Both the position numbers and the translations under genes were made by a program. From NCBI GenBank assembly GCA_965116415.1, contig OZ220693.1, positions 831,076 to 895,075 on the forward strand: a DNA stretch of 64,000 nt, written 5' to 3'. This document shows positions 8,140 through 64,000 of this stretch, piece after piece (within the stretch, counting starts at the first letter, position 1; every line of letters starts with the position of its first letter). The stretch comes from Dehalococcoidia bacterium. Lineage in GTDB: Bacteria; Chloroflexota; Dehalococcoidia; Lucifugimonadales; UBA1123. The notes below the pieces were generated by a model. The model had not been told where the DNA came from, made no database searches, and saw only the letters and a list, made by a program, of their open reading frames with translations.

Positions 8140-8165
8140 GTCGTCGAGTCCTCCCAGAGTGACCT

Positions 8166-42983: not shown

Positions 42984-44015
42984 CTGACACGCCAATGTGC
43001 GGGTGAACTAGAGATCGCTCCTGCCTAGAACATCACCAACTGAGCGCCGTCCGGCGGCTCGTGACCGATCAGCACCTGGTACTTGAGACGCTTGTCCAAC
43101 ATAGCCACAACCAGATTAGCCATCTGGTCGATGGTATCCAGGGGTCGCCAGTTGTGCCGATGCTCGAACTCGGACACGTACCGGGCTAGATGCTTGGCGC
43201 TGAACCAGTGGTAGATGCCCTGATACCCACGCTTCATCTGCGCCCAGAACGATTCCATGCCGTTCGTGCTTGCCATACCCCTGACGTACTCACCAGCACT
43301 GTGATTGACAGTCTCGTGCTCCCGAGCAATCCCGCTGTAGCCTCCCCAGCTGTCCGTGTAGACCACAGTATCCTCATAGGTCCTGGACTCTACAAAACGA
43401 TGCAGTGTTCGCTGAGACGCATCGGGTACGGGAGCCGCTGACACCTGATGGCTGTATCGGTCCCTGATGCCGACTACAGCAATGTGACCTTGGACTCCCC
43501 GTCCGATTCCGCCTCCCCGTTCTCGTCGCCTTCGGGCGTGCATGGAACGGGCTCGCCCACCAACATAAGTCTCATCTGCTTCGACAGGTCCACGAAACAT
43601 CGGGTCGTCGGACCGCATTGCCTCCCGTATCCTGTGCTGCATGAACCATGCGCTCTTTTGAGTGATGCCCAGGTCACGGTGTAGCTTCATTGACGACACA
43701 CCCTTGAGGTTCGTCATCATCTGGTAGATCGCTATGGCCCACTTCTGGTAGCCGATCTTCGAGGACTCCATGACAGTGCCGAGCTTCGCGGAGAAATACT
43801 TCCGACAATCACCGCACCAGTATGGCATGGGCTTGGAGTTCTCGACCGGAGACGTGACTGTGCTCCCACACCTGGGGCAAGCCCTTCCGTCCGGCCAGCG
43901 GATGCTCTCGAACCATGCCCGTGCTTGCTCTTCGTCCGGGAACATGTCAAACAACTGGACGAGCGATATGCCGTCCCTCTCTTCTCTGCCTGCCACTGCC
44001 CTGGCTCCTCTTCTA
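42984..44015 (-). mobile_element. IS1595-family insertion sequence; ends not resolved
   Basis: Defined only by the transposase gene. I could not find convincing terminal inverted repeats or target duplications by eye, so the boundaries are approximate. Confidence 0.45.
43025..43996 (-). CDS. IS1595-family transposase (N-terminal zinc-ribbon plus ISXO2-like DDE domain)
   Basis: 323 aa. Contains FPDEEQARAWFESIRWPDGRACPRCGS ... YWCGDCRKYFSAKLGTVMESSKIGYQKW ... SSMKLHRDLGITQKSAWFMQHRIREAM and D...D...E spacing in the C-terminal half. Confidence 0.85.
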   Translation of the reverse strand: MAGREERDGISLVQLFDMFPDEEQARAWFESIRWPDGRACPRCGSTVTSPVENSKPMPYWCGDCRKYFSAKLGTVMESSKIGYQKWAIAIYQMMTNLKGVSSMKLHRDLGITQKSAWFMQHRIREAMRSDDPMFRGPVEADETYVGGRARSMHARRRRERGGGIGRGVQGHIAVVGIRDRYSHQVSAAPVPDASQRTLHRFVESRTYEDTVVYTDSWGGYSGIAREHETVNHSAGEYVRGMASTNGMESFWAQMKRGYQGIYHWFSAKHLARYVSEFEHRHNWRPLDTIDQMANLVVAMLDKRLKYQVLIGHEPPDGAQLVMF

Positions 44016-47432: not shown

Positions 47433-48329
47433 CTACCGATCAGTCGGCACCGGGATACCTGGTATGTTCACACGGACACTTCCGACCATGTTCCAGGTCG
47501 TGAAATAGAGCGTCTTCCAGTCATCCCTGCCGAACGCCACGTTGGTCGTCGCACCCTCACCGTGGGCGATCGTGCCAAGATGGTTGCCATCGGCGTCGAT
47601 CACCCAGACGCCACCTGACCCGCCGCAGTAGATATTGCCCTCGACGTCTACCTTCATGCCGTCTGGAACGCCAGGGCGGTCGCCGCTGAGGTCACACAGG
47701 ACACGGTCTGAGGCCAGCGCGATTGTGCCGTTGGGTTGAACGTCGAACGCGCGGATGTGCTGACGTCGCGTATCGTTGATGTAAAGGATGCTCTCGTCCG
47801 GCGAAAATGCGAGCCCGTTGGGGGTCAGGAAGTCGCCGACGATCATGGTGATGTCGCCGAGGTCTGGCGGGACCATGTAGACGCCCGCAAAGTCGAGGTC
47901 GAGTCCGGGCCCAGGCGCTCCAGGGTCGGTAAAGTAGATGCTGCCGTCGGATTTCACCACCGCGTCGTTTGGGCGGTTCAGGCGTCGGCCCCGGTAGCTC
48001 CAGGCGATGACGGTCACTTCCCCGTCCGAGTCCTGTCGTGTCACCCGACGAGCGCTGTGCTCACAGGCAACGAGCCTGCCCTTGAGGTCGCGGGTCAGCC
48101 CGTTTGCGTGGTTGGTAGGCTGCTGATAGACAGAGACCCCGCCTCCTGGAGTCAGCTTCATTCGCCGGTTGTTGTGGATGTCACTGAAGAGCAGGTAGCC
48201 GCCTTCATGCCACCAGAGAGGGCCCTCCGCAGGGCCACCGTCACCACCGTAGCCGCTGCCGTGCCACTCTACGTGCTGGTCGGGGTCGAGAACCTGTGGG
48301 AGGTTGGAGGAGTGTTGTTCGATGGGCAT
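47433..48329 (-). CDS. SMP-30/gluconolactonase/LRE-family beta-propeller protein
   Basis: Contains EGPLWW ... NG ... RPNDAVV.SDGSIYFTDP ... PNGLAFSPDE ... PDGMKVD..GN motifs. I prefer the ATG at 48329. Confidence 0.82.
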   Translation of the reverse strand: MPIEQHSSNLPQVLDPDQHVEWHGSGYGGDGGPAEGPLWWHEGGYLLFSDIHNNRRMKLTPGGGVSVYQQPTNHANGLTRDLKGRLVACEHSARRVTRQDSDGEVTVIAWSYRGRRLNRPNDAVVKSDGSIYFTDPGAPGPGLDLDFAGVYMVPPDLGDITMIVGDFLTPNGLAFSPDESILYINDTRRQHIRAFDVQPNGTIALASDRVLCDLSGDRPGVPDGMKVDVEGNIYCGGSGGVWVIDADGNHLGTIAHGEGATTNVAFGRDDWKTLYFTTWNMVGSVRVNIPGIPVPTDR

Positions 48330-48526
48330 GTCGACATCCTTTGGGGCCAGACTGAAGCGATTTCCGCACAAGACTAATTCCAACTGAGAGGAGAGTCAAT
48401 CGAAACACGATGGGGTCATCCGATCGGATCGCCTCCGTTGAGATGTCTGGTTTTCATGTATACTCGACTCCGCAACAATTAGAACGTGCATTTCAGAACA
48501 TGTACGAAGGCCCGGGAAGGGAGAGG

Positions 48527-50398
48527 ATGACCATGAAAGCAAAGAGGTACGAGTTTAAATTCACCGTCGTACTCGTCATCTCCATAATGACAGCATTAGT
48601 GCTTGCGTGTTCATCGGAGCCGGAAGTAATCGAAGTCGTCAAGGAAGTCCCTGTAGAAGTTGAAAAAGTGGTGACTCAGGAAATCGTTAAGGAAGTTCCT
48701 GTAGAAGTTGAAAGGGTGGTCACCAAGGAGGTCGTCAAGGAAGTCCCTGTAGAAGTTGAAAAGGTGGTGACACAGGAAGTCGTTAAGGAAGTTGTCAAGG
48801 AAGTCCCCGTAGAGGTTGAAAAGGTGGTCACCAGGGAGGTCGTCAAGGAAGTCCCTGTAGAAGTTGAAAAGGTGGTCACCAAGGAGGTTGAAAAGGAAGT
48901 CGTCAGGATAGTCGAGATACAAGGGATGCGTGGAGGATCACTGGTAGATGCTCGCACGACAGATGCCACGAGCCTTGACCCACACAACGTACCGGCTGCC
49001 GCAAACTTCCGAATCAGGGGCCATGTGTACAGCGGTCTGGTGAGCCTGGACTCCGGTATGTCGGTCCAGCCTGACCTCGCGACAAACTGGATCATACCCG
49101 ACCCCACAACTTACATCTTCAACATTCGGCAAGGAGTAACGTTCCACAACGGGGAACCACTCTCCGCAGACGACGTTAAGTACACGTATGAGCGGATCCT
49201 GGATGAGTCTATCGGCTCGTTCATTAGAGGTGGAATACTAAACATCAGCGAGATAAATGTAGTCGACTCGCAGACTGTCGAGTTCAAGCTTGAGAATCCT
49301 GAAGGAGGATTCCTGAGCCGGCACTGGTCGATTGGAATCATTCCCAGGTCTGTCGCTGACCAGCCTAAAGACTGGCTTAACAACAATGTCGTGGGAACCG
49401 GCCCATGGGTTCTTCAGGACTGGAAGACCGACGTGGAGCACAGTGTCACTCGAAACGAGAACTACTATGAGCCGCAAATCCCGCTCATGGATGGATTCAA
49501 GGTCCAGGTGATCCCTGAAGAGTCATCGATCATTGCAGGAATACGAACGGGGATAGTCGACCACGCCAAGCTGGAGGACGCCCAGAACTTTAGCCTGCTT
49601 CAGAAGAACCCAAACGTCGTTCTGTACCAGACGCCCGCCATGGGCACCAATTTCGTCAACATCAATCACCGTTCAGGTACCGGCCCTGGCCCAGCCCAAG
49701 GACCACTTAGCGACATTCGAGTGCGCCAGGCCCTTTCCCTTGGGATGGACAGAGATGCGATCCTGAATCTTGTAGGTGCGGGGCTGGGTACAGTAAGCGG
49801 TCATGTGCCGCCTTCACTGTCTGAGTACTGGGTGCCGCCCGAAGAGTTGCCCTACTTCCAACGCGACGTGGAACGAGCCAAGCAGCTGTTGGCTGAAGCA
49901 GGTTATGCAGACGGGTTCTCCATGGACATAATCTACATCCCTGAGTTCGCTGTGATGCAGTTCTCGGCTGAACTATTGGCGGAGCAGTGGAAGGAGATCG
50001 GGCTCGACGCTGTTGCGAGATCCACAGAGTACGGTGTCTGGCTCGACGAACGGGTAGAGACCTTCCCGTATTTTGTAAGCACCAATCTGACATTCAACAT
50101 GGCAGACCCTGACCACGTCCTCTACAACTGCTTCCACTCGTCTGGCAGCTGCGCCCAGTGGGATGCGTGGTCTGACCCTGAAATGGACGCGCTGTTGGAC
50201 AAGGCTCGCCAGGAGACCGACCCGGCCATGCGAGTGCAGCTCTGGAAGGACGTCCAGATCATGCTGGCTGAGCGCATTCCTGCCCTCACCTCGTTTGCGC
50301 CCATCGAAATTGACGTGGTGCAGAAGTGGGTCAGGGGGTACACGCCACATCCGTCCGCTGTCCAGTTTGGATTCAAGTGGACATGGCTTGATAGGTAG
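48527..50398 (+). CDS. ABC transporter substrate-binding lipoprotein, family 5 (peptide/nickel type) with a repeat linker
   Basis: Start at the ATG at 48527 (GGGAGAGG upstream). Signal peptide plus lipobox (ALVLAC|SS), then an approximately 90-residue EVVKEVPVEVEKVVT repeat region, then an SBP_bac_5-type domain (ATNWIIPDPTTYIFNIRQGVTFHNG...). Confidence 0.88.
   Translation: MTMKAKRYEFKFTVVLVISIMTALVLACSSEPEVIEVVKEVPVEVEKVVTQEIVKEVPVEVERVVTKEVVKEVPVEVEKVVTQEVVKEVVKEVPVEVEKVVTREVVKEVPVEVEKVVTKEVEKEVVRIVEIQGMRGGSLVDARTTDATSLDPHNVPAAANFRIRGHVYSGLVSLDSGMSVQPDLATNWIIPDPTTYIFNIRQGVTFHNGEPLSADDVKYTYERILDESIGSFIRGGILNISEINVVDSQTVEFKLENPEGGFLSRHWSIGIIPRSVADQPKDWLNNNVVGTGPWVLQDWKTDVEHSVTRNENYYEPQIPLMDGFKVQVIPEESSIIAGIRTGIVDHAKLEDAQNFSLLQKNPNVVLYQTPAMGTNFVNINHRSGTGPGPAQGPLSDIRVRQALSLGMDRDAILNLVGAGLGTVSGHVPPSLSEYWVPPEELPYFQRDVERAKQLLAEAGYADGFSMDIIYIPEFAVMQFSAELLAEQWKEIGLDAVARSTEYGVWLDERVETFPYFVSTNLTFNMADPDHVLYNCFHSSGSCAQWDAWSDPEMDALLDKARQETDPAMRVQLWKDVQIMLAERIPALTSFAPIEIDVVQKWVRGYTPHPSAVQFGFKWTWLDR
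48632..48909 (+). repeat. coding tandem repeat with 48-nt period (about 5.5 units; one unit is 60 nt)
   Basis: Units run 48632-48679, 48680-48727, 48728-48775, 48776-48835 (which carries an extra 12 nt) and 48836-48883, plus a partial unit. Each encodes E[VI]VKEVPVEVE[KR]VVT[QKR]. Confidence 0.95.
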
Positions 50399-50575: not shown

Positions 50576-51499
50576 TCAGGCTGATTGCCGATCACTGCCC
50601 CCGATCTGCTGACGCAGCCTGGGGTCCAGGATGTCGCGGAGTCCGTCTCCCAGCATGTTGAAGGCCAAAACGGCCAACATTATCGCGATACCAGGGAAGA
50701 TTGACGCCCATGGAGCTTTCTCGAGTACATCACGCGCGTCGCTCAGCAACCTGCCCCACGAGGGGTTTTCAGCGGGCGTGCCAAGACCCAAAAAGCTAAC
50801 AGCAGCCTCAATCAGGATGGCCCCTGCGAATGTCACAGAAGCCTGAACGATGACAGGGGGAGCAACGTTGGGGGCTATGTGACGTGTCACTATTCGCAAG
50901 TTGCTGGCGCCCAGTGCGCTGGCCGCGTTGACGTACTCTTTCTCCTTTTCAACCAAGACGGGACCGCGTACTACCCTATACAGCAGCGGTGTAAACACAA
51001 TGCCAAGGGCAATCACGGTGTTCCTAATTCCGGGTCCCAGCATGGCCGCCACGGCGATGACAAACAACATGAAAGGGAACCCGAATATAATGTCCATCAG
51101 CCGCCCTGACACGTTGTCCCATATGCCCCCAAAGTAGGCAGAGAAGAGAGCTAGAGATCCCCCAACGAGGATTGCAAAAACAACCGAGAAGAGCGGGATA
51201 ATGAGTGACACCCGGCTAGCATGAACGACACGACTGTAGATGTCCCTGCCCAGTCTGTCGGTCCCGAAGAAGGCTTCCATGCCAGGGCTGCTGAATCCCA
51301 GAGATGCCTTGGGCTCAAGCGGCCCTCGCGTCGCAATCAGGTCGGCAAAAATCGCCATGATGACGAACAGGCCGACGATGATGATGCCCGCCAGAGTCAG
51401 CTTGTTAGCTGTTATTGCCCTGAGGACGTAGAATCCTCTGCTTCGCGAGGTTTGATCGATTACAGCCTTATCGGTGCGGGCTTCACCAGTAATGGACAT
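50576..51499 (-). CDS. ABC transporter permease (DppC/OppC-type)
   Basis: 307 aa and polytopic. Contains the EAA-loop region YVNAASALGASNLRIVTRHIAPN. Confidence 0.88.
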   Translation of the reverse strand: MSITGEARTDKAVIDQTSRSRGFYVLRAITANKLTLAGIIIVGLFVIMAIFADLIATRGPLEPKASLGFSSPGMEAFFGTDRLGRDIYSRVVHASRVSLIIPLFSVVFAILVGGSLALFSAYFGGIWDNVSGRLMDIIFGFPFMLFVIAVAAMLGPGIRNTVIALGIVFTPLLYRVVRGPVLVEKEKEYVNAASALGASNLRIVTRHIAPNVAPPVIVQASVTFAGAILIEAAVSFLGLGTPAENPSWGRLLSDARDVLEKAPWASIFPGIAIMLAVLAFNMLGDGLRDILDPRLRQQIGGSDRQSA

Positions 51500-51607: not shown

Positions 51608-52555
51608 CTAGCCGTACCTTATACGCGGGTTTACGTAGGCATAAAGGACATCTACCAACAGGTTGCTGAAGACAAATATCGTCGCTATGAACAGGACGAC
51701 TCCCTGAATTAGTGGGTAGTCGCGTTGGGATATGGCAAGAAGCATCAGCCGTCCCACGCCAGGGAGTGTAAAGACCGCCTCCATGACCACGATCCCGCCC
51801 ATCAGGTATCCGATTTGCAGCCCGGCAATGGTCACGACTGGGATCAGGGTGTTCTTGAGTGCGTGCGAGTAGATCACCACGCGATCGTGAAGGCCCTTGG
51901 CCCTAGCCGTCCTGACGTAGTCCTGGCGCAGCTCTTCCAACATCGTGGCCCTCGTCATACGCACGATGTTTGCGGAGGCAACCGTGCCTACAGAGATGGC
52001 CGGAAGTATCATAATGCTGAGGTTGGTTGCCGGATCTTTCCAGAAGTCCACGTACTCCAACGAGGGGATCCAGCCCAGTGTTATTGAGAGTACGAGAATC
52101 AACATGATCCCCTGCCAGAATTCGGGAATCGACAGGCTAAACATGGACATAACTCGGACCAAATAGTCGATGGGCGAGTTCTGCCTGGTGGCGGCGATTA
52201 TTCCCAGCGGGACTCCAAGACCGATGGATACCAACATGGCAAGGATAGTTAGCTCAGCCGTCACCGACAGCCTATCAAGAATAAGGCCCATGACCGAGTT
52301 GCCACTACGCCATGAAGTGCCCAAGTCGCCCTGGAGCACACCACTGAGCCACTGCCAGTACTGGACATGCAAGGGTTGATCCAAACCGAAGAAGCTTCGA
52401 AGCTCCTGGATCATCTCGGGAGTACGTTCAGCCTGTTCCAAGCTGACTTGAACGATGTCGCCAGGTATCAGTCTGGCCATTAGGAACACCAGCACAGACA
52501 GACCAAACAGGGTGAATACCATGCTGATTAGTCTGACCACGATGAACTGACGCAT
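51608..52555 (-). CDS. ABC transporter permease (DppB/OppB-type)
   Basis: I prefer the ATG at 52555 (MRQFIVVRLISMVFTLFGLSVLVFLM..., the typical OppB N-terminus). Contains the EAA loop YVRTARAKGLHDRVVIYSHALKN. Confidence 0.88.
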   Translation of the reverse strand: MRQFIVVRLISMVFTLFGLSVLVFLMARLIPGDIVQVSLEQAERTPEMIQELRSFFGLDQPLHVQYWQWLSGVLQGDLGTSWRSGNSVMGLILDRLSVTAELTILAMLVSIGLGVPLGIIAATRQNSPIDYLVRVMSMFSLSIPEFWQGIMLILVLSITLGWIPSLEYVDFWKDPATNLSIMILPAISVGTVASANIVRMTRATMLEELRQDYVRTARAKGLHDRVVIYSHALKNTLIPVVTIAGLQIGYLMGGIVVMEAVFTLPGVGRLMLLAISQRDYPLIQGVVLFIATIFVFSNLLVDVLYAYVNPRIRYG

Positions 52556-52684
52556 GTCCGTCCTCTTGCCGACGCGAGGCTCTATGCCGAGGGGTTGGCG
52601 ACTCTCCGATACTATCATCGAAGAACCACGTTCGCCATTTGCAGCGGGCAATGAGACTGTATCAATTCAGTCGGAGGCACAAAC

Positions 52685-52754
52685 GTAGGGGCGTCCCTTG
52701 TGGGCGCCTTGAGCATGATGGCCAACATGGGCAACCACAAGGGATTGCCCCTAC
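52685..52754. repeat. inverted pair of REP-like units of about 20 nt in a divergent promoter region
   Basis: GTAGGGGCGTCCCTTGTGG (52685-52703) faces CCACAAGGGATTGCCCCTAC (52735-52754). The arms are complementary except for a 1-nt bulge and one G-T. Each arm is itself an imperfect hairpin. Confidence 0.6.
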
Positions 52755-52859
52755 ATGTGTATGACCGACCAAACTGGTACAGCATCGCGGGCAATCGTCG
52801 TCTTGACCCTTGAACGACGTGCGAATAGTATCAGCCGGACACATTGAGGAGTGCCGATC

Positions 52860-54062: not shown

Positions 54063-54844
54063 CCACTACATCCGTTGCCGAGGAATTCGTCGAAGTCGGC
54101 GGAGCGAAGGTCCATCTCGTCAGAGGTGGAGACGGCCCTCCCCTGCTCTTTCTGCACAGCATCGAGGGCAACCTGGGCTGGCTTCCGTGGATGGAAGAAG
54201 TCTCGAAGTCTTCGACAGTGTACGCGCCGACGCACCCAGGCTTCGGGCGTTCAGAACGGCCCGAGTTCCTCGAGTCAGTCTCGGACATGGCGCGGTTCTA
54301 CCTGTGGATGATCCAGGAGTTGAGGCTTGACGGAGTTACACTCGTCGGACACTTCCTCGGCGGGTGGATTGCCTCAGAGATGGCGACCATGAGTCCGGAA
54401 AGCCTGGGGAGTCTGATTCTGATCGATTCCGCGGGAGTCAGGCCGGAGGAAGGTGAGATCGCTGACATCTTCCTGCTAGGAGAGGATGAGACAACGAGGC
54501 TCTCATTCCACGATGCCGCAAACGCTCCTGGCTACTCCGAACTGTTTGAACGCGATCTATCCCCCAAAGAGCTTGAGATGAGAGTTCGCGGACGGGAGAT
54601 GACGACGCGCCTGTGCTGGAAGCCGTACATGCACGACCGCAGCCTCGTCTGGCTCCTACAGCGAGTCAACGTGCCGACGCTGATCGTGTGGGGCGCTGAG
54701 GACAAGATCATCCCGTCGGATGCAGGTCGCCGAATACAGGAGGCGATTCCAGGATCGCGCCTGGAAGTCATCCCCGACTGTGGTCACCTGCCACACATAG
54801 AGAAGTCGGATGAGTTCTTGAGGTTGCTGAGCCACATGATTTAG
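54059..54844 (+). CDS. alpha/beta-fold hydrolase (C-C hydrolase/esterase-like)
   Basis: 261 aa. The start overlaps the LLM stop (ATGA). Contains LLFLHS, the nucleophile-elbow-type GHFLGG, and C-terminal DCGHLPHIE. Confidence 0.8.
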   Translation: MTTTSVAEEFVEVGGAKVHLVRGGDGPPLLFLHSIEGNLGWLPWMEEVSKSSTVYAPTHPGFGRSERPEFLESVSDMARFYLWMIQELRLDGVTLVGHFLGGWIASEMATMSPESLGSLILIDSAGVRPEEGEIADIFLLGEDETTRLSFHDAANAPGYSELFERDLSPKELEMRVRGREMTTRLCWKPYMHDRSLVWLLQRVNVPTLIVWGAEDKIIPSDAGRRIQEAIPGSRLEVIPDCGHLPHIEKSDEFLRLLSHMI

Positions 54845-55018
54845 ACCTGAAGGCAAGCGACGTATTCAACACTCAACGATTCGGCGTGGATCAAGTGATA
54901 GCAATTGGCCAAGAGTTCAGCTAGCAAAATACAGTCACGTAAAACTGGACAAATAAAGCGACCTTGTTTCAATTTAAGGTTGCCGTAACCTTAGAGCCTA
55001 ATACCCTGGAGACCAACA

Positions 55019-56833
55019 ATGGATGTAAATGTTCTCACAATGGAAAAGCTGTTTGGAAAGCCCATACGCTACCAGATTCCGACTTTCCAGAGACCGTACG
55101 TTTGGGGCAAAGACGAACAGTGGGAGCCACTCTGGGATGACGTGCGTAACACGGCCGAGGACTATCTAGAAAACAGCGCCAACACGAATGGATCGGTGCG
55201 ACGAGTTCCCACAAGCCAGGCACGGGCACATTTCTTGGGTGCTGTCGTCGTTCAACAGCAGCCTTTCATGACAGGTGAAATCGAAACTAGACTTGTAATA
55301 GACGGCCAGCAACGTTTGACAACATCGCAACTGCTCTTGGACGCCGTGCAAGAAATACTAGAGCAACGCGAATATGGTCGTATGGCGAAGAGGCTGTCAC
55401 TACTTGTTCTAAACAATGACGCCTACATAGAAGACGAAGACGATGTATTCAAAGTGTGGCCGACCCTCAATGATCGGGACGCATTTCGTCACGCAATGCA
55501 CAACGGACTTCCAAGTGAAGAATACGAAGATTCTCTAATCGTACAGGCTCACGAATTCTTTAAGCAGCAAATTGAACACTGGCTAGACGAACGTCCCGAG
55601 GAGGTCGAAGCACGAGCAGACGCACTAGAAAAGGCCGTCGTACATCTTCTTGAATTAGTCATAATCGATCTGCGCTTGGATGATGAACCGCACATTATAT
55701 TCGAGACTCTCAATGCTCGAGGGACCCCTTTACTGCAGTCTGATCTCATAAAGAACTTTATCCTCTATAAGGCCGGACAGGCCGATATCACTGATGGCTC
55801 AGAGGATGCAATAGGGTTGTGGGCATTTAACGATGACTGGTGGAGAACTGAAATCGGCAGAGGCCGCATAAGGGAACCGAGGATTGACGTCTTCCTAAAC
55901 TACTGGCTCACCATGCGGACGCGAGAGGAGATTAGGCCGGACCGAACTTCAGCAGAGTTCCGCAACTACGTGGAAGGGACACACTACGACATTAGAGAGA
56001 TTGCTGGCGACATCAGACGGGTCGGCGAAACTTACCGAGATCTTGAAATCGGCAACAAGGTTGGATTCGAGAGTTTCCTATACAGGCGCGAAGTCATGCA
56101 GGCTGGAACACTTACTCCAGTTCTACTTTGGCTATTCTCTTCCCAAATGTCAGAAGCGCAGCGAAAGAAGGGGGTTCACGCGCTAGAGAGCTACATGGTC
56201 CGACGCATGGTTTGCCGAATGACAACCAAGAATTATAATCAGCTTTTTCTCCGACTAATAAACACCCTAGAGGACGAAGGACCAACGGCAGCGGGCGATA
56301 CCATAGCCCGTTATCTGGGAGAACAGACAGCCCATGCAAACTTGTGGCCAGATGACAGAATGCTCGAAGACGCTTTCCTAAAACTCCCTCTCTATTGGTC
56401 CCTCACGAGGGGGAGGCTCAGACTTGTCCTAGAAGGGATTGAAGAGGAGATGCGATCGAGAATGGCGGAGAGCCACTCTGTGCCACGAGGGCTAACGATT
56501 GAACACATCATGCCACAAAAGTGGCAAGCCAATTGGCCTCTTGATGCAGATACCGCAGACGTAGAGAGTGTCGTGAAGAAGAGAGATCGCCGCAACCGCA
56601 TTCTCCATTCGATCGGCAATCTGACTCTTGTAAATGGACGGCTGAATGCAAGCCTGTCCAATGGCCAGTGGTCAGACAAAAAGAAGGTATTGAACCAACA
56701 CACGGTTCTCTTCCTTAACAAGGAACTCTTGGACGAAGCTCCAAATACCTGGGACGAAGAGCTCATAGAAGAGCGCGCGCGGCGGCTATCAGGAATTGCA
56801 GCGCGAGTCTGGCCTTCTGCCGAGGCCATATAA
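55019..56833 (+). CDS. DUF262/DUF1524 two-domain nuclease (GmrSD-like type IV restriction/defence protein)
   Basis: 604 aa. The N-domain has FQRPYVW and IDGQQRLTT (the DGQQR motif of the ParB-like DUF262). The C-domain has TIEHIMPQKW ... IGNLTLVNGRLNASLSN (His-Me/HNH-like DUF1524). The gene and its flanks are visibly AT-richer than neighbours. Confidence 0.8.
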   Translation: MDVNVLTMEKLFGKPIRYQIPTFQRPYVWGKDEQWEPLWDDVRNTAEDYLENSANTNGSVRRVPTSQARAHFLGAVVVQQQPFMTGEIETRLVIDGQQRLTTSQLLLDAVQEILEQREYGRMAKRLSLLVLNNDAYIEDEDDVFKVWPTLNDRDAFRHAMHNGLPSEEYEDSLIVQAHEFFKQQIEHWLDERPEEVEARADALEKAVVHLLELVIIDLRLDDEPHIIFETLNARGTPLLQSDLIKNFILYKAGQADITDGSEDAIGLWAFNDDWWRTEIGRGRIREPRIDVFLNYWLTMRTREEIRPDRTSAEFRNYVEGTHYDIREIAGDIRRVGETYRDLEIGNKVGFESFLYRREVMQAGTLTPVLLWLFSSQMSEAQRKKGVHALESYMVRRMVCRMTTKNYNQLFLRLINTLEDEGPTAAGDTIARYLGEQTAHANLWPDDRMLEDAFLKLPLYWSLTRGRLRLVLEGIEEEMRSRMAESHSVPRGLTIEHIMPQKWQANWPLDADTADVESVVKKRDRRNRILHSIGNLTLVNGRLNASLSNGQWSDKKKVLNQHTVLFLNKELLDEAPNTWDEELIEERARRLSGIAARVWPSAEAI

Positions 56834-56908
56834 TGAGGACTCTGGGGTCAAGTATCCGGGGCACCCCAGTTGGAGTTCAGATCAATACAGTGGGCTTGTT
56901 GCACTCTG

Positions 56909-57847
56909 CTAGTCAGGATCTGTCCTAATTCGAGCCTTGGCAACGGCCGCGGCCTTTACGGCCTCGCGGGCGGCGCAGCGCTCCCAGAGCTCCAGGTTGA
57001 CGCGGGCGTTCTCGTCGACTGGGACGTCGATCATCATGGTGGTGCCGGGATAGGGAATCGCGGCGGTGCCTCGCGCTACTCCTTCCGCGAATAGACGTCG
57101 GGTCTCGCGGTAGAACTCCAGCCTGTCTTCGGGCGGCGCGAAGGCCCTGTTGCAGTGCTCGACCCAGGATGGGTCAGGACATATCGCGCCTGCAAAGCCG
57201 AGGTTCTTCGACCTGAGGGCAAGGCGAGCTATCTCGCCTTCGTCGTCGAACTCGGGCAGCACACCGTACGGATGACTCATGCCTATGGGTTGGACTTTCG
57301 AGGCACGGGCCTCGATGATCACCCTGCCCTTGGCGTACTCGAACGGATCGAAGTCGGCGCTCGGGACGATCCCCAGGCTCTGGCACAAGGCCAGCTCGTC
57401 GATCCCGACCGAGCTTACACGTTCCGATGCGCGAACTATCTCACGAATGTTCCATACACCCGCACCTGATGTGAGCAATACGATGATGTGGAGCGTGTTC
57501 TCATGCACACCGCTCTTCTTCTCGAACTCAGCCAGCCACTCATCGACCTGCTCAAGCTCGGATCCTGACTCTTCGCCCGCATAGACGATGCCCTTCAAGC
57601 CAGGGCCGGCCGCGGCCTCCAAGTCCGCATACGCTGCGACTCTGTCGGTCAGGACAAACACTTCAGCGCCGCCCAGTGCGGCAGTGTTGACCGCCTGTCG
57701 CAAGTTCGCACGAGCTGTCGACCGCTCCAGCGCCCCTCCAGGCAATGTCAGAGCCACTGCGTCTGCGTTGTGCCTCCACGATCCATTGACGGCTTCACGA
57801 TTGAGGACGTCGACGAGCAGGTGAGACCTTCTGACGAATGGCTTCAT
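56909..57847 (-). CDS. HpcH/CitE-like lyase paralog C (signature motifs degenerate)
   Basis: Start at the ATG at 57847, overlapping the upstream stop (ATGA). The fold-level pattern is CitE-like, but LTLPGG replaces DLED and VLLTSGAG replaces the ..ET.. motif. Confidence 0.65.
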   Translation of the reverse strand: MKPFVRRSHLLVDVLNREAVNGSWRHNADAVALTLPGGALERSTARANLRQAVNTAALGGAEVFVLTDRVAAYADLEAAAGPGLKGIVYAGEESGSELEQVDEWLAEFEKKSGVHENTLHIIVLLTSGAGVWNIREIVRASERVSSVGIDELALCQSLGIVPSADFDPFEYAKGRVIIEARASKVQPIGMSHPYGVLPEFDDEGEIARLALRSKNLGFAGAICPDPSWVEHCNRAFAPPEDRLEFYRETRRLFAEGVARGTAAIPYPGTTMMIDVPVDENARVNLELWERCAAREAVKAAAVAKARIRTDPD

Positions 57848-58788
57848 CCAGACGACTCCTCGGCAGCCTCTGTCCGAGCGCGGGCTGCGGTCTTCTCCGC
57901 ATCCCGCTGGGCGCAGAGGTCGGCCCACTCTATGAGTTCGAGCGCGCGGTCGGCCTCGTAGGCGTCGACGATCTGGCCGTCTAGATCACCCTCGACCTCG
58001 CCTGCTTCGTCAAGCTCGGCAAAGAAGACGAGAACTCTATGAGCGTGCTCGACCTCTTCGGCAGTTGGAGTAAGTCCTTCGTTCTGTGGGGCGACGACGT
58101 TTGGATGGAGGCCGCCGCCTGATCGCAGCCCTGCCTTCCTGTTCGCACGAGCCCGGTTGAGGGCGAGGTCGGCGTTGCCCACGTTGCCAGTCGTGTCGGG
58201 CATGTAGACGCCGCCATCGCGTTCCAGTCCGAGAGCGAGTGCGACTAGCTCGCCCTCACCCCGGTTGTAGAAGAACTGATCGAATCCCACGAACATCTCG
58301 ACGCCCATGTCCATGGACATGTCGTAGCCCGTCCCGGGTCCGAACGAGTCTATGCGCGGACTGGCTGACGCTATCTCGTAGGAGTTCGCCACTCCCAGAG
58401 TGGTCTCGACCGTGGCGCCAATGCGGACCGTGCCAGGTCTGATACCTCGCACTCTCTCCATTCCGGTGATGAGTTCGTCGAGGTTCTTGATCTGTTCAGC
58501 GGTCTCCGCCTTTGGAAAGTTGATCTGAGTGACTCCTGGCAGTACGGCGGCTGGAACGTCCACCTCGGGGTAGGCGCAGTTGATCCTGATGTTGACCTCT
58601 GCCGCTCCCTTCTTAGCCTGCTCAATGGCGTACTTGACCAGTGTGCGGGCGTGCTCCTTCTGCGACTGGGGAACGGAGTCTTCGAAGTCGAAGTTCAGGT
58701 AGTCGCAGTCTCGGGTCCACGACCGCCCCACGAAGCGAGGGTTGTTGATGGGCATTGTCAGCCCGGAACGTCTCACTCTTCTGGTCAT
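57844..58788 (-). CDS. HpcH/CitE-like acyl-CoA lyase paralog B (malyl-/citramalyl-CoA-lyase-like; canonical motifs present)
   Basis: 314 aa. Contains FDFEDSV (DxED box), INFPKAE, ATVETTLG (Mg-ligand Glu context) and HPNVV. Confidence 0.75.
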   Translation of the reverse strand: MTRRVRRSGLTMPINNPRFVGRSWTRDCDYLNFDFEDSVPQSQKEHARTLVKYAIEQAKKGAAEVNIRINCAYPEVDVPAAVLPGVTQINFPKAETAEQIKNLDELITGMERVRGIRPGTVRIGATVETTLGVANSYEIASASPRIDSFGPGTGYDMSMDMGVEMFVGFDQFFYNRGEGELVALALGLERDGGVYMPDTTGNVGNADLALNRARANRKAGLRSGGGLHPNVVAPQNEGLTPTAEEVEHAHRVLVFFAELDEAGEVEGDLDGQIVDAYEADRALELIEWADLCAQRDAEKTAARARTEAAEESSG

Positions 58789-58800
58789 AGCCTGTTCCCT

Positions 58801-59715
58801 CTAATCATGATCGGGCTGGGACTGGCCGCGCACGAGTTCTCTCGCCTGATCGCGTGCTACGCAGGCGTCTGCCCAAGCGGCGAGGTCGGACGAGATCTGG
58901 GATGCCGGTGATACCGCAGTTTGGTTTTCCAGCTCCGAATTGGACGGGGTAAAGCCCCTATTGAGCGCGTCAACCTGATTCGACCTCATGCAAAGAGCGC
59001 CCCGGAAACCCGCCTGTCGACCCGTCAGTGCCGCCTCGAGCGTGTCCAGGGAGCTGGCTACCAGACCCCGGGATGTCGCGCGCCACCAAGCGCCCACAGG
59101 CTCGACGCCGGTCGCGTTTGCAATGATGATTAACCTCTGTATCAGATACGGGAGCAAGTGTAGGTCGCCAGTTGGCTCCTCGCGAAGGTCCATGACGAGG
59201 TCGGCGCGTCCCAGGCTGATTGACTTGACCCGGTCGCTGGCTCTGATCAGATCCTCGGCGTGCCAGTTGCCGGGGCCGGTGTCGAGGGACAGGTGGATCT
59301 CCAGTGCCTGCTCAGGGCCACGGGGGTCGTCGGCCTCCCGAACCTGCCCAACCGGTGGAGGTTTGACCACGCCTCGCTCGGCCTCGAACTGCGAGAGAAT
59401 CTCGTCGGCTGCCCGCACCTGCTCAACGCTCGTTACGCCGGGCAGGACCACGCCTGACAGTCCCCGCCAGACGGATGCATCGAGATCGGCATACATCAAG
59501 TCGACATCGGAGCGCACGAAAACCTCAGCACCGGCGTCACGCATCGTTTCGATGGCACCGCGGACCTTACCGCGCGCATCGTGCTTACGGCTCTCGTGTA
59601 CGGTGTCCTGCAAATCGAGTACGACAACGTCCGCGCCGGACTCTGCAGCCTCGTCCAGAGCCTTGTCGTTATGTGCAGGCACAATCAGCCAGGAGCGTCG
59701 AACTGTGTACGTCAT
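58801..59715 (-). CDS. HpcH/CitE-like lyase paralog A (partly divergent motifs)
   Basis: 304 aa. Contains RSWLIVPAHN ... VVVLDLQDTV (E to Q), LSLDTGPG (E to D) and LGRADLVMDL. Its start overlaps the stop of the acyl-CoA synthetase (ATGA). Confidence 0.7.
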   Translation of the reverse strand: MTYTVRRSWLIVPAHNDKALDEAAESGADVVVLDLQDTVHESRKHDARGKVRGAIETMRDAGAEVFVRSDVDLMYADLDASVWRGLSGVVLPGVTSVEQVRAADEILSQFEAERGVVKPPPVGQVREADDPRGPEQALEIHLSLDTGPGNWHAEDLIRASDRVKSISLGRADLVMDLREEPTGDLHLLPYLIQRLIIIANATGVEPVGAWWRATSRGLVASSLDTLEAALTGRQAGFRGALCMRSNQVDALNRGFTPSNSELENQTAVSPASQISSDLAAWADACVARDQARELVRGQSQPDHD

Positions 59716-61856
59716 GCGTCGTCCCGTTTCAACGTCACCAAAGCGTCCAGTGCCTTCACGCCGCCTCCCTCTGGAAGAACCGCGAGCGGGTTTATGTCCA
59801 ACTCCTCGATGACGCCGTCAAGGTGTACAGCGAGGTCTGAGACCCGCACGAGGGTTTCGACCAAAGCGTCGACATCGGCCTTTGGCTGGCCCCGGAATCC
59901 GTGCAGCAGCCGGCTGCCACGAACCTGTGCGACCATCTCCTCGGCATCAAGGCGCGAGATTGGGCACACACGAAGGGCGACGTCGCGCATCACCTCGACG
60001 AGTATGCCGCCCATCCCGAATAGCAGGACCGGGCCGAGCTGCGAGTCGTAAGTCACGCCGACTATGACTTCGGTAGCATCGCGGACCATCTCTCCCACGA
60101 GCACGCCTTCGATGCGCGCGCCAGTCGAGTGCGCCCTGGCGTTAGATACAACCTCTCGATAGGCTGCCCGCACGGCATCGTCGGAGGTCAGGCCTACTCT
60201 CAGCGCATCGGCCTCCGTCTTGTGCAAGATGTCCGGAGAGTTGACCTTGACTACGACAGGGAGGCCGATCTCTCGCGCAGCCTCGACGGCCTCGTCCTCG
60301 GATGCAGCCAACCGCTCGGTTACGATCGGAACTCCCCATTGAGCTACGAGCTGCTTTGCCTCATGTTCTGAAAGAGCGCCGCCGCCTCTGGCTTCCAGTG
60401 CGTGGGCACAGTCAATCTGGGCATCGCTCATGGCCTGCGCACTTCCGAAATCGGAGCCGCGCCTTGACTGTCTCCACGAGTGGTAATCGTGGAACTGCCT
60501 GAGCGCAGATGCAAGGTTCTCGGGACTGTGGAACACGGGCACGCCTGCGTCCTTCAGTCGGTCCAGGCCGGTGGAAGCTCCTAACTCGTTGCCCGTGTAC
60601 AGGAACGTAACGAGCTTGTCATGCCTGTCTCGAACGTCGATGACGTGCCTCGCCTGATCGTCCGACGCGGAACTTGCGACGACAAGCGTGCCGACTTCCG
60701 GCTCACAAATCATGTGCTCCATGATGGGCAGCACCGTGTCACGGCTGGCGTGACCGGTTATATCGGCAGGATTCGCGGCCCATCCGAATCCCTCGAGGAT
60801 GTCGTTGATGGCATCCCTGGCCGGGTCAGAGAGTTCGGGAAGTTCGAGACCGGCGTCACCAAGGTTGTCTGCCGTGAGTGAGCAGACTCCTCCGGAGTGG
60901 GAAACCAGCGCGATTCCCTGATTGGTCGGAGACTTCCCTACTGACAGGAGCTGCGCGACCTCCAGCAGCTTGTCCCAGTCGTGGACACGGACGACCCCGT
61001 ACTGCTCGAAGGCCGCGTCGTATACCTCGTCCACGCCGGTGAGCGCGGCGGTATGGGAGCGTGCGGCCCTCATACCGAGATCTGAGCGACCTATCTTCAC
61101 GGCGACGATTGGTTTGCCACGCTCGGCTGCAAGTCTTGCGACTTCGAGGAACTTCCTGGCGTCATTGAAGCCCTCAATGAACATGGCAATGACACTGGTG
61201 TCGTCGTCGTCGAGAAGGTATCTTGCGAAGTCAGGACCTTCAAGATCGGCTTCATTTCCCGTTGAAACAATGTACGAGTAACCCACGCCGCGTCCGACAG
61301 CCCTCGACAGGAACGGGCCGAAAGCGGATGCGCCGCTCTGGCAGACGAGTCCGACGTTTCCGCTCTTGAGCTCGACGCCTTCGAGACGCGACGATGAGCA
61401 CGCCCAGATGTCGTCCTTGATGTTGGCGAGACCGAGGCAGTTCGGACCGGAGATGCGGACGCCTGTCTCCTGGGCGACCTGCCCGAGTTCGGCCTGAAGC
61501 TCGCGTCGATCGTCCACGCCACGCTCAGAGAAGCCGGCTGATATGACAACTGCAGAGCCCGCTCCGCGCTCGGCGCTCTCTCGCAGGACGGGAATCACCC
61601 TGTGGTACGGGACTATGATGCCTACGGCGTCTGGGGCTTCGGGTAAGTCGAGAACGCTGGCGTAGCACTTCTGTCCAAGCAATTCGTCGTAACGAGGATT
61701 GACCGGGTAGACGTTTACACGATCACCGGCCTGGAGCGCGGCGCGCAGGAACCTGCCGCCGTACTGGGGGCGCTCGGTCGCGCCAACGACGGCGATCGAG
61801 CGCGGATTAAGCATCTTGTGTATGGAGGCGAGCTGAGCCTCCGACCAGTAGTCCAT
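59712..61856 (-). CDS. ADP-forming acyl-CoA synthetase (acetate--CoA ligase family; fused alpha/beta, CoA-binding plus ATP-grasp)
   Basis: 714 aa. The N-terminus is LNPRSIAVVGATERP (CoA-binding Rossmann). A succinyl-CoA-synthetase-like middle has the phospho-His context (SHTAALTG). The C-terminal ATP-grasp has VVKV.SPDILHKTE. Confidence 0.85.
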   Translation of the reverse strand: MDYWSEAQLASIHKMLNPRSIAVVGATERPQYGGRFLRAALQAGDRVNVYPVNPRYDELLGQKCYASVLDLPEAPDAVGIIVPYHRVIPVLRESAERGAGSAVVISAGFSERGVDDRRELQAELGQVAQETGVRISGPNCLGLANIKDDIWACSSSRLEGVELKSGNVGLVCQSGASAFGPFLSRAVGRGVGYSYIVSTGNEADLEGPDFARYLLDDDDTSVIAMFIEGFNDARKFLEVARLAAERGKPIVAVKIGRSDLGMRAARSHTAALTGVDEVYDAAFEQYGVVRVHDWDKLLEVAQLLSVGKSPTNQGIALVSHSGGVCSLTADNLGDAGLELPELSDPARDAINDILEGFGWAANPADITGHASRDTVLPIMEHMICEPEVGTLVVASSASDDQARHVIDVRDRHDKLVTFLYTGNELGASTGLDRLKDAGVPVFHSPENLASALRQFHDYHSWRQSRRGSDFGSAQAMSDAQIDCAHALEARGGGALSEHEAKQLVAQWGVPIVTERLAASEDEAVEAAREIGLPVVVKVNSPDILHKTEADALRVGLTSDDAVRAAYREVVSNARAHSTGARIEGVLVGEMVRDATEVIVGVTYDSQLGPVLLFGMGGILVEVMRDVALRVCPISRLDAEEMVAQVRGSRLLHGFRGQPKADVDALVETLVRVSDLAVHLDGVIEELDINPLAVLPEGGGVKALDALVTLKRDDA

Positions 61857-62108
61857 AATCAGTTAGAGAGGTTGTCCTGTATCAGGCTTGGCGTCCGTAT
61901 CGTGCGATTACCACACCCTTACCTAGTGAATCATCCAGTGGTTGCAGTACGTGGGCTCCCGAGAGTCAACGTTCAGACCAGCCTGGTCACGTGCTTCAAT
62001 TGTGCGATCGTGCCTGGACGACATCAATCGGCGATGTCGATATGCGGCACTGCATACCACGATGAGCGCCATGGCAGCGACTAGAACAGTCAGCGTGATC
62101 ACCAGAGA

Positions 62109-63311
62109 CTAGTCCGCGGTTGCTACGGCCTTGGACTTTTCCATCTCTCGGATGGCGGGAAAGACCTCTTTGCCGAATAGCTCGATTGAGCTCATGACCT
62201 TCTCGTGTGGAATGGTCTCGGTCTGGATAATCATCATGACTTCGTCGACGCCGATCTCCTGGTACTGCTGGATGGCCCGGATGCAGCTTTCGGGATCACC
62301 AGCGATGGTGACTGCGCGGTCTGCGAGCGTGTTAGCGTCAAGCTCGGCGATGGCTGCACGTGCAGCGCCAGGCCCCGAGTCCAGCGAGATACCCACATCC
62401 TCGGCCTGCTGCTTGTGGGCCTCGTCGGACTGTCGGAGCCAGCGACCGAAGTCGGCCTCCAAGTGCTCGGGGACACCGCCCCATGCTTCCAGCAACTCTT
62501 CGTAGGCGCCGACGCGGCCTGCGATGTACGGCTTGTCTGGTCCGAAGAAGGTCTTCATGGACTCCGCGGCCGTCTCCCGTGCCTCCTGGTTGTCCGTGCC
62601 GCAGAAGGCGTGGACATTGTTCGCCCAGTAGTTGGTCGTGAAGGCTCCAACCGGGTTGGCGTTCTTGATCTTCTGCTTGTAGGTCTTGACGTGTGACTCC
62701 AGCACCGACGTCGCGTACGAAGCCGAAGAGAGCACACCAATGCCCTTCTCTGCCGCGAGGTCAAAGCTGGACGACTGCGTGCAGGCGAGGTACATATTTG
62801 GATGCGGCTTCTGGACGAGCTTGGGCAGCACACGGCGCGAGGGCACGTTCCAGAACTTGCCCTCCCACTCGAACTCGTCGGACTGCCAGATCTGCGGCAG
62901 CATGGTGATCGACTCGTTCCACATGTCGCGGGTGTCCCTGGGGTCCACTCCGAGGCCCATCTGCTCGTAGGCGTTCGAGCGGCCGGTGCCGAACTCGACT
63001 CTGCCGTCGGTGAGCTGATCGACCATCGCAACCCGCTCTGCGATTCGCACCGGGTGAGCGTGAGGCAATATCGACACTCCGAACCCAATCCTGATGTTCT
63101 TGGTGCGCTGGCTGAGCGCCCCGAAGATCACCTCAGGGCAGGGAGATCCGGAGAACCCGAGCAGGAAGTGGTGCTCAACGAACCAGACCCTGTCGTACCC
63201 GACACTGTCGGCGAGCTCACACTGTTCGAGCGTCTCCTTGTATAGTGTGTTCCAGTCGATCTCGGTGCCCTCGTACGGGCGCTGCATCTCAAATAGCAGA
63301 CCGAAGTTCAT
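62109..63311 (-). CDS. luciferase-like (LLM-class) flavin/F420-dependent oxidoreductase
   Basis: 400 aa. Contains MNFGLLFEMQ ... GYDRVWFVEHHF ... GRVEFGTGR, typical of the LLM family. Confidence 0.82.
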   Translation of the reverse strand: MNFGLLFEMQRPYEGTEIDWNTLYKETLEQCELADSVGYDRVWFVEHHFLLGFSGSPCPEVIFGALSQRTKNIRIGFGVSILPHAHPVRIAERVAMVDQLTDGRVEFGTGRSNAYEQMGLGVDPRDTRDMWNESITMLPQIWQSDEFEWEGKFWNVPSRRVLPKLVQKPHPNMYLACTQSSSFDLAAEKGIGVLSSASYATSVLESHVKTYKQKIKNANPVGAFTTNYWANNVHAFCGTDNQEARETAAESMKTFFGPDKPYIAGRVGAYEELLEAWGGVPEHLEADFGRWLRQSDEAHKQQAEDVGISLDSGPGAARAAIAELDANTLADRAVTIAGDPESCIRAIQQYQEIGVDEVMMIIQTETIPHEKVMSSIELFGKEVFPAIREMEKSKAVATAD

Positions 63312-63413
63312 CTTTACTCTCCTCGGGAACGCGCTTCAGGTAGGGCGCGCAACCCTTGACTGGGCCAATCCTACTAGTGCGTAGGGCGGTGTGCAACGGG
63401 TGGGAGCGTCCAG

Positions 63414-64000
63414 CTAAGTCTGGCGGAGGCGGGGATCCATCCTGTCGCGGACCCAGTCGCCGAGCAGGGTGAACGCGATCACCACCAAAGCGATGATCAT
63501 ACCCGGGGCGAGGCTGTCCCACCATGCATCGACTACATACAGGCGACCGAGCGCGACCATGGAACCCCACGCAGGTGTCGGTGGAGGCACTCCGGCTCCG
63601 AGGAAGCTGAGCGACGCCTCAGCAAGGATGATGTTGCCGACCTGGATGGTGGCAACGACGACGATCGTGTTGAGCACGCCGGGGAGGATGTGCTTGTAGA
63701 GGATGCGAGTGGTCGATGCGCCTGTGACCTTGGCAAGGGCGACGTAGTCCATCTCCTTGAGCACCAGTACCTCGCCGCGGACCTGCCGGGCGAAACCTCC
63801 CCATATCAGGAAGGCAAGGAGTCCGAGAAGCAGCGGCAGGCTGGGACCGAAGATGAGAGCCAGCGCCAGCGCAATCAGAATGAACGGCAGCGAGAACTTG
63901 ACGTCCACGATGCGCATGATGATCTCGTCCACCCAGCCTCCGAAGTAGCCTGAGATCATTCCGACCACAGTACCAAAAAGCCCTCCGACTCCCAGTACCA
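63414..64000 (-). CDS. ABC transporter permease (DppC/OppC-type), C-terminal part; the 5' end lies outside the window
   Basis: The frame stays open to position 64000 (…GTVVGMISGYFGGWVDEIIMRIVDV…). Contains the EAA-loop context YVALAKVTGASTTRILYKHILPG. Confidence 0.85.
   Translation of the reverse strand, partial: VLGVGGLFGTVVGMISGYFGGWVDEIIMRIVDVKFSLPFILIALALALIFGPSLPLLLGLLAFLIWGGFARQVRGEVLVLKEMDYVALAKVTGASTTRILYKHILPGVLNTIVVVATIQVGNIILAEASLSFLGAGVPPPTPAWGSMVALGRLYVVDAWWDSLAPGMIIALVVIAFTLLGDWVRDRMDPRLRQT

Follow-up and report, generated by a model that had tools for sequence, protein, structure and literature searches.

In a window of 64,000 nucleotides from a Dehalococcoidia bacterium (the whole stretch of DNA that we analysed; contig OZ220693.1, positions 831,076 to 895,075), a minus-strand operon carries a gene for an ADP-forming acyl-CoA synthetase followed by three tandem genes for CitE/HpcH-like lyase paralogs, here called A, B and C. 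We propose, with a probability of about 0.6, that the three paralogs are the subunits of a single obligate hetero-oligomeric CitE-like β-hydroxyacyl-CoA lyase, which would at its simplest be a 1:1:1 ring and might be a hexamer of two such sets. A heteromer of the three paralogs, as the initial annotation of this DNA had suggested, is strongly supported by our sequence comparisons, namely by conserved synteny, by the complementary retention of catalytic residues, by covariation between the subunits and by natural fusions of A to B.

The synthetase gene (59712..61856, 714 amino acids) encodes an ADP-forming (NDP-forming) acyl-CoA synthetase (ACD) of the fused alpha-beta type, with Pfam matches to CoA_binding_2, Succ_CoA_lig and ATP-grasp_5. 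It is followed by the genes for A (58801..59715, 304 amino acids), B (57844..58788, 314 amino acids) and C (56909..57847, 312 amino acids from its ATG, with a longer GTG-started open reading frame extending to 57928), the products of which match PF03328 (HpcH_HpaI) with 79.1, 75.6 and 54.2 bits, respectively, against a gathering cut-off of 25 bits. These matches agree with the families first assigned to the four genes, and direct reading of the sequence confirmed both their coordinates and their tight coupling: the synthetase gene and A share an ATGA overlap at 59712-59715 (GCATGACG), A and B are joined by TAG, 12 nucleotides (58789-58800; agggaacaggct) and ATG, and B and C share a second ATGA overlap at 57844-57847 (GGATGAAG). 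Because the gene order and the tight junctions are repeated in more than 100 independent loci, the arrangement is not a product of chance.

For these comparisons we used a genome set, in which one genome per species was scanned to give 80 loci, and an independent metagenome set of 35 complete triads; pooled, the two gave 107 triads, and in all 160 loci were fetched from more than 280 confirmed ones. Homologs at E ≤ 1e-5 numbered 459 for C and 1039 for A, the best 120 being at least 61% identical to the C of the window and at least 66% identical to its A. The A-B-C order on one strand was found in about 73 of the 80 genome loci, in at least five phyla or classes (Dehalococcoidia/SAR202, Ktedonobacterales, Chloroflexia, Candidatus Entotheonella, Methylomirabilota and Betaproteobacteria), and in 35 of 35 metagenome contigs of sufficient length. 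The initial annotation was right to look to Chloroflexota/SAR202, the nearest relatives being metagenome-assembled genomes of Dehalococcoidia and SAR202. The median gap is 25 nucleotides between A and B and five between B and C, with a one- or four-nucleotide overlap at 24 of 73 B/C junctions.

Median identity is 49-55% within each of the A, B and C groups and 29-31% between them, B being the slowest-evolving paralog. The triplication is therefore older than these lineages, unless the three genes have travelled together. By this comparison A, B and C are three old orthologous groups under purifying selection, a stable partition with no ongoing decay. The initial annotation had read the motifs of the paralogs as a graded decay, and the motif losses are real: the translations contain FDFEDSV and ATVETTLG in B, LDLQDTV and LSLDTGPG in A, and LTLPGG and VLLTSGAG in C. 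The decay is not in progress, however, as identity within each group is maintained at this level across phyla.

Catalytic residues and the proposed order of the ring

Catalytic positions were mapped through a family alignment, with R. sphaeroides malyl-CoA lyase (Mcl1) as the reference for numbering. The barrel of malyl-CoA lyase supplies the Mg2+ ligands E141 and D168, the water-ligand pair E44 and D45, and D42 and R76 (PMC3832036). The active site of CitE-like enzymes is composite, in that a C-terminal helix/hairpin/helix lid from the neighbouring subunit brings the catalytic Asp299 and shuts the CoA tunnel (PMC3832036, PMC6689899), and a lid acting in trans is also known for Rv2498c (PMC6689899).

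Paralog B has all six barrel residues (D34, E36, D37, R68, E128 and D156) and the lid aspartate, D275. Its sequence aligns over its full length, lid included, to the malyl-CoA lyases 4l9y and 5ugr, and the catalytic residues are kept in 72-78 of 78 orthologs and in 35 of 35 metagenome triads, save where the reading frame is cut.

The barrel of A has D34, Q36, D37, R68, D145 and D172, so that five of the six positions are identical or conservatively replaced (Asp145 for E141), the remaining change being Gln36 for E44; its Mg2+ ligands are invariant across orthologs. In the clade of the window, the family alignment shows that the lid hairpin at the C-terminus of A, and with it the catalytic aspartate, has been deleted. 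A also carries an insert of 13-17 residues at about residues 117-136 (..PPP.G.V.EADDPRGPEQ; VKPPPVGQVREADDPRGPEQ), preceding the strand that bears D145; many positions in this insert are invariant among orthologs at least 68% identical, and it is found neither in B and C nor in the solved lyases. An AF2 model of A, built with 27 orthologs of at least 68% identity, reached a pLDDT of only 48.9 and was not used.

Paralog C has none of the six catalytic residues of the barrel, with T34, P36/G37/G38, L66, T126 and A153 in their places. Its lid is near-invariant (..ETRRLFAEGVARGTAAIPYPGTTMMIDVPVDE..), bears the catalytic aspartate, D274, and is the most conserved segment of the protein. The AF2 model of C has a pLDDT of 89.9 and a pTM of 0.87, and the top Foldseek matches to it were the malyl-CoA lyases 4l9z and 4l9y, with CLYBL and citramalyl-CoA lyase also found (TM 0.77-0.81, about 310 columns); C is therefore confidently predicted to be a malyl-CoA-lyase-like barrel with a lid. 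A pairwise HMMER alignment to 1sgj had offered E151 as the Mg2+-ligand position of C, but this was rejected, as the family alignment puts the ligand two residues further on, at Ala153 in the window and at an aspartate in the 'LDESDL' orthologs.

These residues do not bear out the division of roles first proposed, with one catalytic subunit and two scaffold or pseudo-enzyme subunits. The barrel site of C itself is, to judge from its residues, dead in most lineages, the window included; yet its lid, with D274, is its most conserved part, and C would be a lid donor and no mere scaffold, the aspartate of which must act in trans. Nor, by the same reasoning, is A a pseudo-enzyme in this genome: D34, D37, R68, D145 and D172 leave the barrel near complete, and only the lid hairpin is gone.

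The same complementarity runs through the 107 triads. Both the barrel and the lid of B are competent in all of them; the lid of C is competent in 106 and its barrel in 28, and the barrel of A is competent in 58 and its lid in 40. Were the paralogs to form homotrimers, A would have complete sites in only 11 triads and C in only 28. Four main patterns were seen, in all of which B has a competent barrel and lid and C a competent lid. In the first, that of the window (47 triads), A has a barrel but no lid and C has no barrel. In the second (28 triads), the barrel of A is not competent, with Gln for Arg76, the lid of A is kept and the barrel of C is competent too. The third (19 triads) has neither barrel nor lid in A, and no barrel in C, and the fourth (11 triads) has both in A, again with no barrel in C.

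Retention of the lid in A goes with retention of the barrel in C. Among the genomes, C keeps D168 in 11 of 19 triads in which A has a lid, compared with none of 55 in which it does not (Fisher p = 1.8e-8), and the metagenomes gave the same result (18 of 24 compared with 0 of 11, p = 3e-5). Over both sets, D168 of C is thus retained in 0 of 66 triads whose A lacks the lid, with one fusion locus as an exception. The lid of A has been lost in several ways, by deletion of the hairpin (the clade of the window), by truncation of the whole C-terminal domain, by replacement of the aspartate with threonine and by insertion; on a neighbour-joining tree of B the losses fall in at least six independent places, each of them where the barrel of C was already degenerate. 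This covariation implies that the lid of A pairs with the barrel of C, and in a three-fold ring such a pairing would place the lid of C on the barrel of B and the lid of B on the barrel of A. Arranged in this order, none of the 107 triads would be without a complete site and 86 would have two, whereas the opposite order leaves 19 of the 107 with no complete site.

In the enzyme that we propose, the core site would be formed where the lid of C (D274) closes the barrel of B, both parts being invariant across the family. A second, slightly altered site would be formed where the lid of B (D275) closes the barrel of A (D34, Q36, D37, R68, D145 and D172), and A, lacking the lid hairpin, would face the dead barrel of C.

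Natural fusions also connect the paralogs. When 1.84 billion representative proteins were searched with a profile, three different proteins of two domains and 612-645 amino acids (P0246, P0247 and P0267) emerged as fusions of A to B. Six contigs, drawn from three samples or more, carry P0246; the gene downstream of it is a C, the start of which overlaps the stop of P0246, and its neighbourhood includes a thiamine-diphosphate enzyme, the adjacent synthetase and a PrpD-family gene. In the case of P0247 and P0267 as well, a third paralog follows directly. The P0247 locus (L084, 5001-7882) has a different functional context, with the fusion and its C-like neighbour beside PRTase_2/TRSP, PRTase_3 and HAD genes and no synthetase present.

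Several observations weigh against the heteromeric ring. The covariation statistics are uncorrected for phylogeny, and the triads with an intact C barrel belong to only one or two clades. The lid of B is invariant even in the 46 of 107 triads that have Gln for the catalytic Arg in the barrel of A, where a site made of the B lid and the A barrel must serve something other than canonical cleavage. B by itself holds everything that a canonical homotrimer needs. Two of the fusion loci also depart from the expected pairing: at L081, which carries the P0246 fusion, the hairpin of A is deleted although the barrel of C is complete, and at the divergent L084 the C protein has neither the barrel residues nor the lid aspartate while A keeps its lid, which would be in keeping with the reverse order of the ring or with some other assembly.

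The acyl-CoA partner and the direction of the pathway

The domains of the synthetase (PF13380, PF13607 and PF13549) are the CoA-binding, CoA-ligase flavodoxin and ATP-grasp domains of the ACD family, and its phosphohistidine motif (SHT, residues 267-269) coincides with SHTGAL of 8wzu in the alignment. That structure, a 4-hydroxybutyrate--CoA ligase [ADP-forming], is the closest solved one (E = 3e-119), followed by a 3-hydroxypropionate-CoA ligase (E = 2e-98). The NCBIfam equivalogs set much higher cut-offs than the synthetase reaches, with 481 bits of 1300 for 4-hydroxybutyrate--CoA ligase, 404 of 1300 for 3-hydroxypropionate--CoA ligase and 451 of 1200 for acetate--CoA ligase (ADP-forming), and its substrate cannot therefore be assigned from them. 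The same is true of the lyases: A, B and C score 66.7, 110.4 and 59.6 bits with TIGR01588 (citE; cut-off 443) and 54.7, 67.2 and 29.1 bits with NF038242 (RipC_Ccl; cut-off 375), and B scores 24 bits with the haloarchaeal malyl-CoA lyase model NF041626 (cut-off 500), so that no substrate can be transferred from the known lyases. Neighbouring genes give no better guide, because they differ between clades (LLM, lactonase-like SGL, MFS, ALS-like thiamine-diphosphate enzyme, PrpD, thiolase-like and TctC genes).

A synthetase gene adjoins the trio in 43 of the 80 genome loci, upstream and co-directional in close relatives, and downstream on the other strand in distant ones, usually together with an ALS-like thiamine-diphosphate enzyme. 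In 11 loci, the synthetase's place directly upstream of A is taken by a tandem pair of family III CoA-transferases. This replacement implies that the partner interconverts a free acid and the lyase's own acyl-CoA, rather than serving CoA esters in general. The CoA-transferases resemble dicarboxylate enzymes that act on formyl-CoA/oxalate, mesaconate or glutarate, and this resemblance points to a di- or tricarboxylic acid as the class of substrate. We suggest that the synthetase would use ATP and CoA to convert a free acid, probably a hydroxy-di- or tricarboxylic acid, to its acyl-CoA, which the lyase would then split into a short acyl-CoA and a 2-oxo acid.

The pathway might instead run in the opposite direction, with the lyase condensing a short acyl-CoA with a 2-oxo acid and the synthetase freeing the resulting acid and storing the energy of the thioester in ATP. 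Archaea use ADP-forming acyl-CoA synthetases, which are reversible, for ATP synthesis, and the condensation direction of malyl-CoA lyase is that of glyoxylate assimilation. Reversibility has also been described for CitE-like lyases (PMC3832036); the CoA-transferases that stand in for the synthetase might just as well recover CoA from the product, and the ALS-like thiamine-diphosphate enzyme that is linked to the synthetase in many loci belongs to a class handling 2-oxo acids. Set against this, the closest solved relatives of the synthetase are the acid-activating 4-hydroxybutyrate- and 3-hydroxypropionate-CoA ligases, and the context in close relatives, with an LLM oxidoreductase, a lactonase-like SGL protein and MFS and ABC transporters, looks catabolic. 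We regard the condensing direction as possible but unlikely; it is compatible with the heteromer, from which it differs in pathway direction alone, and neither direction is firmly favoured by these data. Of the two functions that the initial annotation offered for the synthetase, activation of a (hydroxy)dicarboxylic acid or the harvesting of ATP from the acyl-CoA product, the choice is thus not settled, while the underlying idea that it acts on the acyl-CoA of the lyase is supported by the CoA-transferase replacement.

Alternative assemblies and known systems

A somewhat less probable alternative than reversal of the pathway concerns the assembly itself. B might be a self-sufficient homotrimeric or hexameric lyase, as its complete barrel and lid in every one of the 107 triads would allow, with A and C forming a separate complex from the barrel of A and the lid of C, or serving the pathway in an accessory or regulatory capacity. 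The A and C of the window do complement each other, A having a barrel and no lid and C a lid and no barrel, and in the betaproteobacterial loci TctC genes part C from A and B. A complex of A with C alone, however, is difficult to build, because CitE-like enzymes are three-fold rings and a reciprocal pair does not fit an odd-numbered ring. Moreover, the natural fusions link A to B and none links A to C; in 19 triads A is kept beside B despite having no competent barrel or lid to offer, and the lid of C is invariant even where the barrel of A is without its catalytic Arg.

Much less probable again is that A, B and C are ordinary paralogs, each an independent homomeric lyase with a substrate of its own, and that their genes are clustered for a common role in one pathway. 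Each of the proteins is a full-length member of PF03328 and is under purifying selection, and B and C are each complete alone in 28 of the 107 triads. When the catalytic residues of the window proteins were scored by alignment, the full set was found in B only, and not in A or C. Across the triads, the barrel of C is not competent in 79 of 107 and A has no lid aspartate in 67 of 107; as homomers such proteins would be inactive, yet the lid of C and the Mg2+ ligands of A are invariant, and the association between loss of the A lid and decay of the C barrel would be left without explanation. Finally, the notion that A and C are decaying duplicates on the way to becoming pseudogenes, which the catalytic motifs lost from the window copies might suggest, is effectively refuted by their intact reading frames of constant length in more than 100 loci across phyla and by their many homologs (the best 120 at the identities given above) with long invariant segments.

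The best matches to A, B and C, in both sequence and fold, are the malyl-, β-methylmalyl- and citramalyl-CoA lyases (R. sphaeroides Mcl1 4l9y/4l9z, C. aurantiacus Mcl 4l80, M. extorquens 5ugr, human CLYBL 5vxc, P. aeruginosa 8khl and M. tuberculosis Rv2498c 6aq4). The trio belongs with them to PF03328; a TIM barrel with a C-terminal lid is predicted for C and is indicated for B by its full-length alignment, and B has the same set of Mg2+ ligands, Arg and lid Asp; closure of the active site in trans by the lid of a neighbour, established for these lyases, is what we propose for the trio. The known enzymes differ in being homo-oligomers of one gene product, with a barrel and a lid in every subunit, whereas the paralogs of the trio are 29-33% identical to one another (and about 25-27% identical to Mcl1) and have the parts divided among them.

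Pairing of a CitE-like lyase with an enzyme that converts a hydroxy- or dicarboxylic acid to its CoA thioester is itself familiar, from MtkAB and malyl-CoA lyase in the serine cycle, SmtAB and Mcl in the 3-hydroxypropionate bi-cycle, and Ict/Ich/Ccl (RipABC) in itaconate degradation. The trio resembles the MtkAB, SmtAB and Ict systems in combining an enzyme that would convert an acid to its CoA thioester with a CitE-like lyase, and both types of partner, an ADP-forming ligase of the succinyl-CoA-synthetase superfamily and a pair of family III CoA-transferases, occur with it. It differs from MtkAB in that the ligase is of the fused alpha-beta ACD type, scoring 28 bits against a cut-off of 604 for the malate--CoA ligase beta subunit, and from all three pathways in that the lyase is a three-gene set and no hydratase is consistently linked to it. 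Citrate lyase, CitDEF, is a heteromer in which the lyase CitE, its beta subunit and a homolog of the trio, is coupled to the formation or transfer of a thioester. Its CitF transferase and CitD acyl carrier protein have no sequence relationship with CitE, whereas the proposed subunits of the trio are all CitE paralogs. CitF and CitD are absent from the four-gene operon and its annotated neighbours, no genome-wide search having been made.

Hetero-oligomers of active and inactive paralogs are known elsewhere, as in the yeast NAD-isocitrate dehydrogenase IDH1/IDH2, the trypanosomatid AdoMetDC/prozyme pair and the crenarchaeal PCNA1-2-3 heterotrimer. They illustrate the same principle, in which duplicated copies of a homo-oligomer with active sites at its interfaces lose complementary parts and come to depend on one another, but their folds and chemistry are unrelated and the likeness is one of analogy only. 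To our knowledge, no such hetero-oligomer arising by complementary loss has been described in the CitE/HpcH family, and a literature search, from which most subscription journals were outside coverage, found no description of a multi-paralog CitE lyase. We consider the balance of evidence to lie slightly on the side of an undescribed class of obligate heterotrimeric CitE-like lyase, which would have arisen by an ancient triplication followed by reciprocal loss of barrels and lids, would form a ring with one invariant composite site (B barrel and C lid) and one or two variable ones, and would be widespread, partnered by an ADP-forming ligase or by two CoA-transferases in a not yet characterised pathway that breaks down a hydroxy-di- or tricarboxylic acid.

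If this is true, the trio offers a case, readable from sequence, of a homomer turned obligate heteromer, in a family (malyl-, citramalyl-, HMG- and citryl-CoA lyases, CLYBL and Rv2498c) that has been treated as homo-oligomeric, and its intermediate states, represented by the four patterns among the 107 triads, are open to reconstruction and testing. Hundreds of proteins in SAR202, sponge-symbiont and soil genomes that are annotated as 'citrate lyase subunit beta / citryl-CoA lyase' or 'hypothetical' would be reclassed as subunits of one enzyme, and A or C expressed singly would be expected to be inactive. The module marks an uncharacterised step of C-C cleavage dependent on ATP or on CoA transfer, in organisms that are thought to degrade recalcitrant dissolved organic matter.

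Transcription, neighbouring genes and variant loci

Upstream of the operon and on the same strand, as first annotated, are genes for a luciferase-like (LLM) flavin/F420-dependent oxidoreductase of 400 amino acids (62109..63311; PF00296, 165 bits) and an ABC permease (63414..63968; PF00528). The LLM gene lies upstream of the synthetase gene, with 87-98% identity, in loci L001-L006, L013-L015, L019 and L039, a linkage confined to the closer relatives. In the window the two genes are separated by a spacer of 252 nucleotides (61857..62108, minus strand), in which the operon probably starts, although read-through from the LLM gene is possible. A promoter and terminator scan found no sigma-70-like or terminator-like site in this spacer and, over 56400-63500, no promoter-like sites and only two weak terminator-like sites, both on the plus strand and fewer than expected from shuffled sequence. 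In one sponge metatranscriptome, short contigs of related strains lie on B, on the 5′ end of the synthetase gene and on the LLM gene, and a related-strain metatranscriptome contig covers 61934-62258, from the spacer into the LLM gene. These contigs are weak evidence of expression, since DNA carry-over is possible, and are silent on co-transcription.

For the region 56400-63400, comparison with sequencing runs X1, X2 and X6 gave near-identical sequence in two host-associated runs (word share 0.98-0.99) and related strains in sponge metagenome and metatranscriptome runs, which fits a sponge-symbiont origin of the window.

Downstream of C, at 54819-56939, is a segment of 2.1 kb that carries a plus-strand gene for a GmrSD-type (DUF262/DUF1524) restriction endonuclease (55019..56833) and is absent from the closest genomes (L001, L003 and L004), in which about 90 nucleotides separate the end of C from a convergent alpha/beta-hydrolase gene; this suggests that a defence gene was inserted, in this strain specifically, at the operon's 3′ end. 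Further away is a minus-strand gene for an SMP-30/gluconolactonase-like (SGL) protein (47433..48383; PF08450). In 21 loci C is followed downstream by an SGL and MFS pair, and the SGL gene is a conserved neighbour of the module in the closer relatives. In the window, a strain-specific insertion of 4.5 kb (48331-52795) parts the SGL/MFS pair from the LLM/hydrolase pair, the two pairs being adjacent in L001 and L003, as judged by collinearity; its cargo is a family-5 solute-binding protein (48410..50398, plus strand) and two ABC permeases (50576..51499 and 51608..52651, minus strand). An IS1595-family transposase gene (43025..43996, minus strand), with DDE_Tnp_IS1595 and zinc-ribbon domains, is located in a stretch with a lower G+C content of 0.54-0.57, compared with about 0.59-0.61 elsewhere.

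Some loci depart from the simple trio. Two from Chloroflexota, L038 (5924-6874 and 6993-7970) and L048 (3656-4627 and 4519-5637), have four paralogs in the order A-B-B'-C, and both full-length B-type genes are catalytically complete; L040, L041, L045, L049 and L109 have a shorter additional B-like reading frame between A and B. At L043 the C gene is in two pieces about 3.3 kb apart (4144-4653 and 8004-8579), which suggests an insertion inside C. In the betaproteobacterial loci L050, L058, L067, L075 and L080, at least one gene for TctC, the receptor of the tripartite tricarboxylate transporter, lies between A-B and C, with gaps of 1.9-6.3 kb, and A is cut down to the barrel alone (about 240 amino acids).

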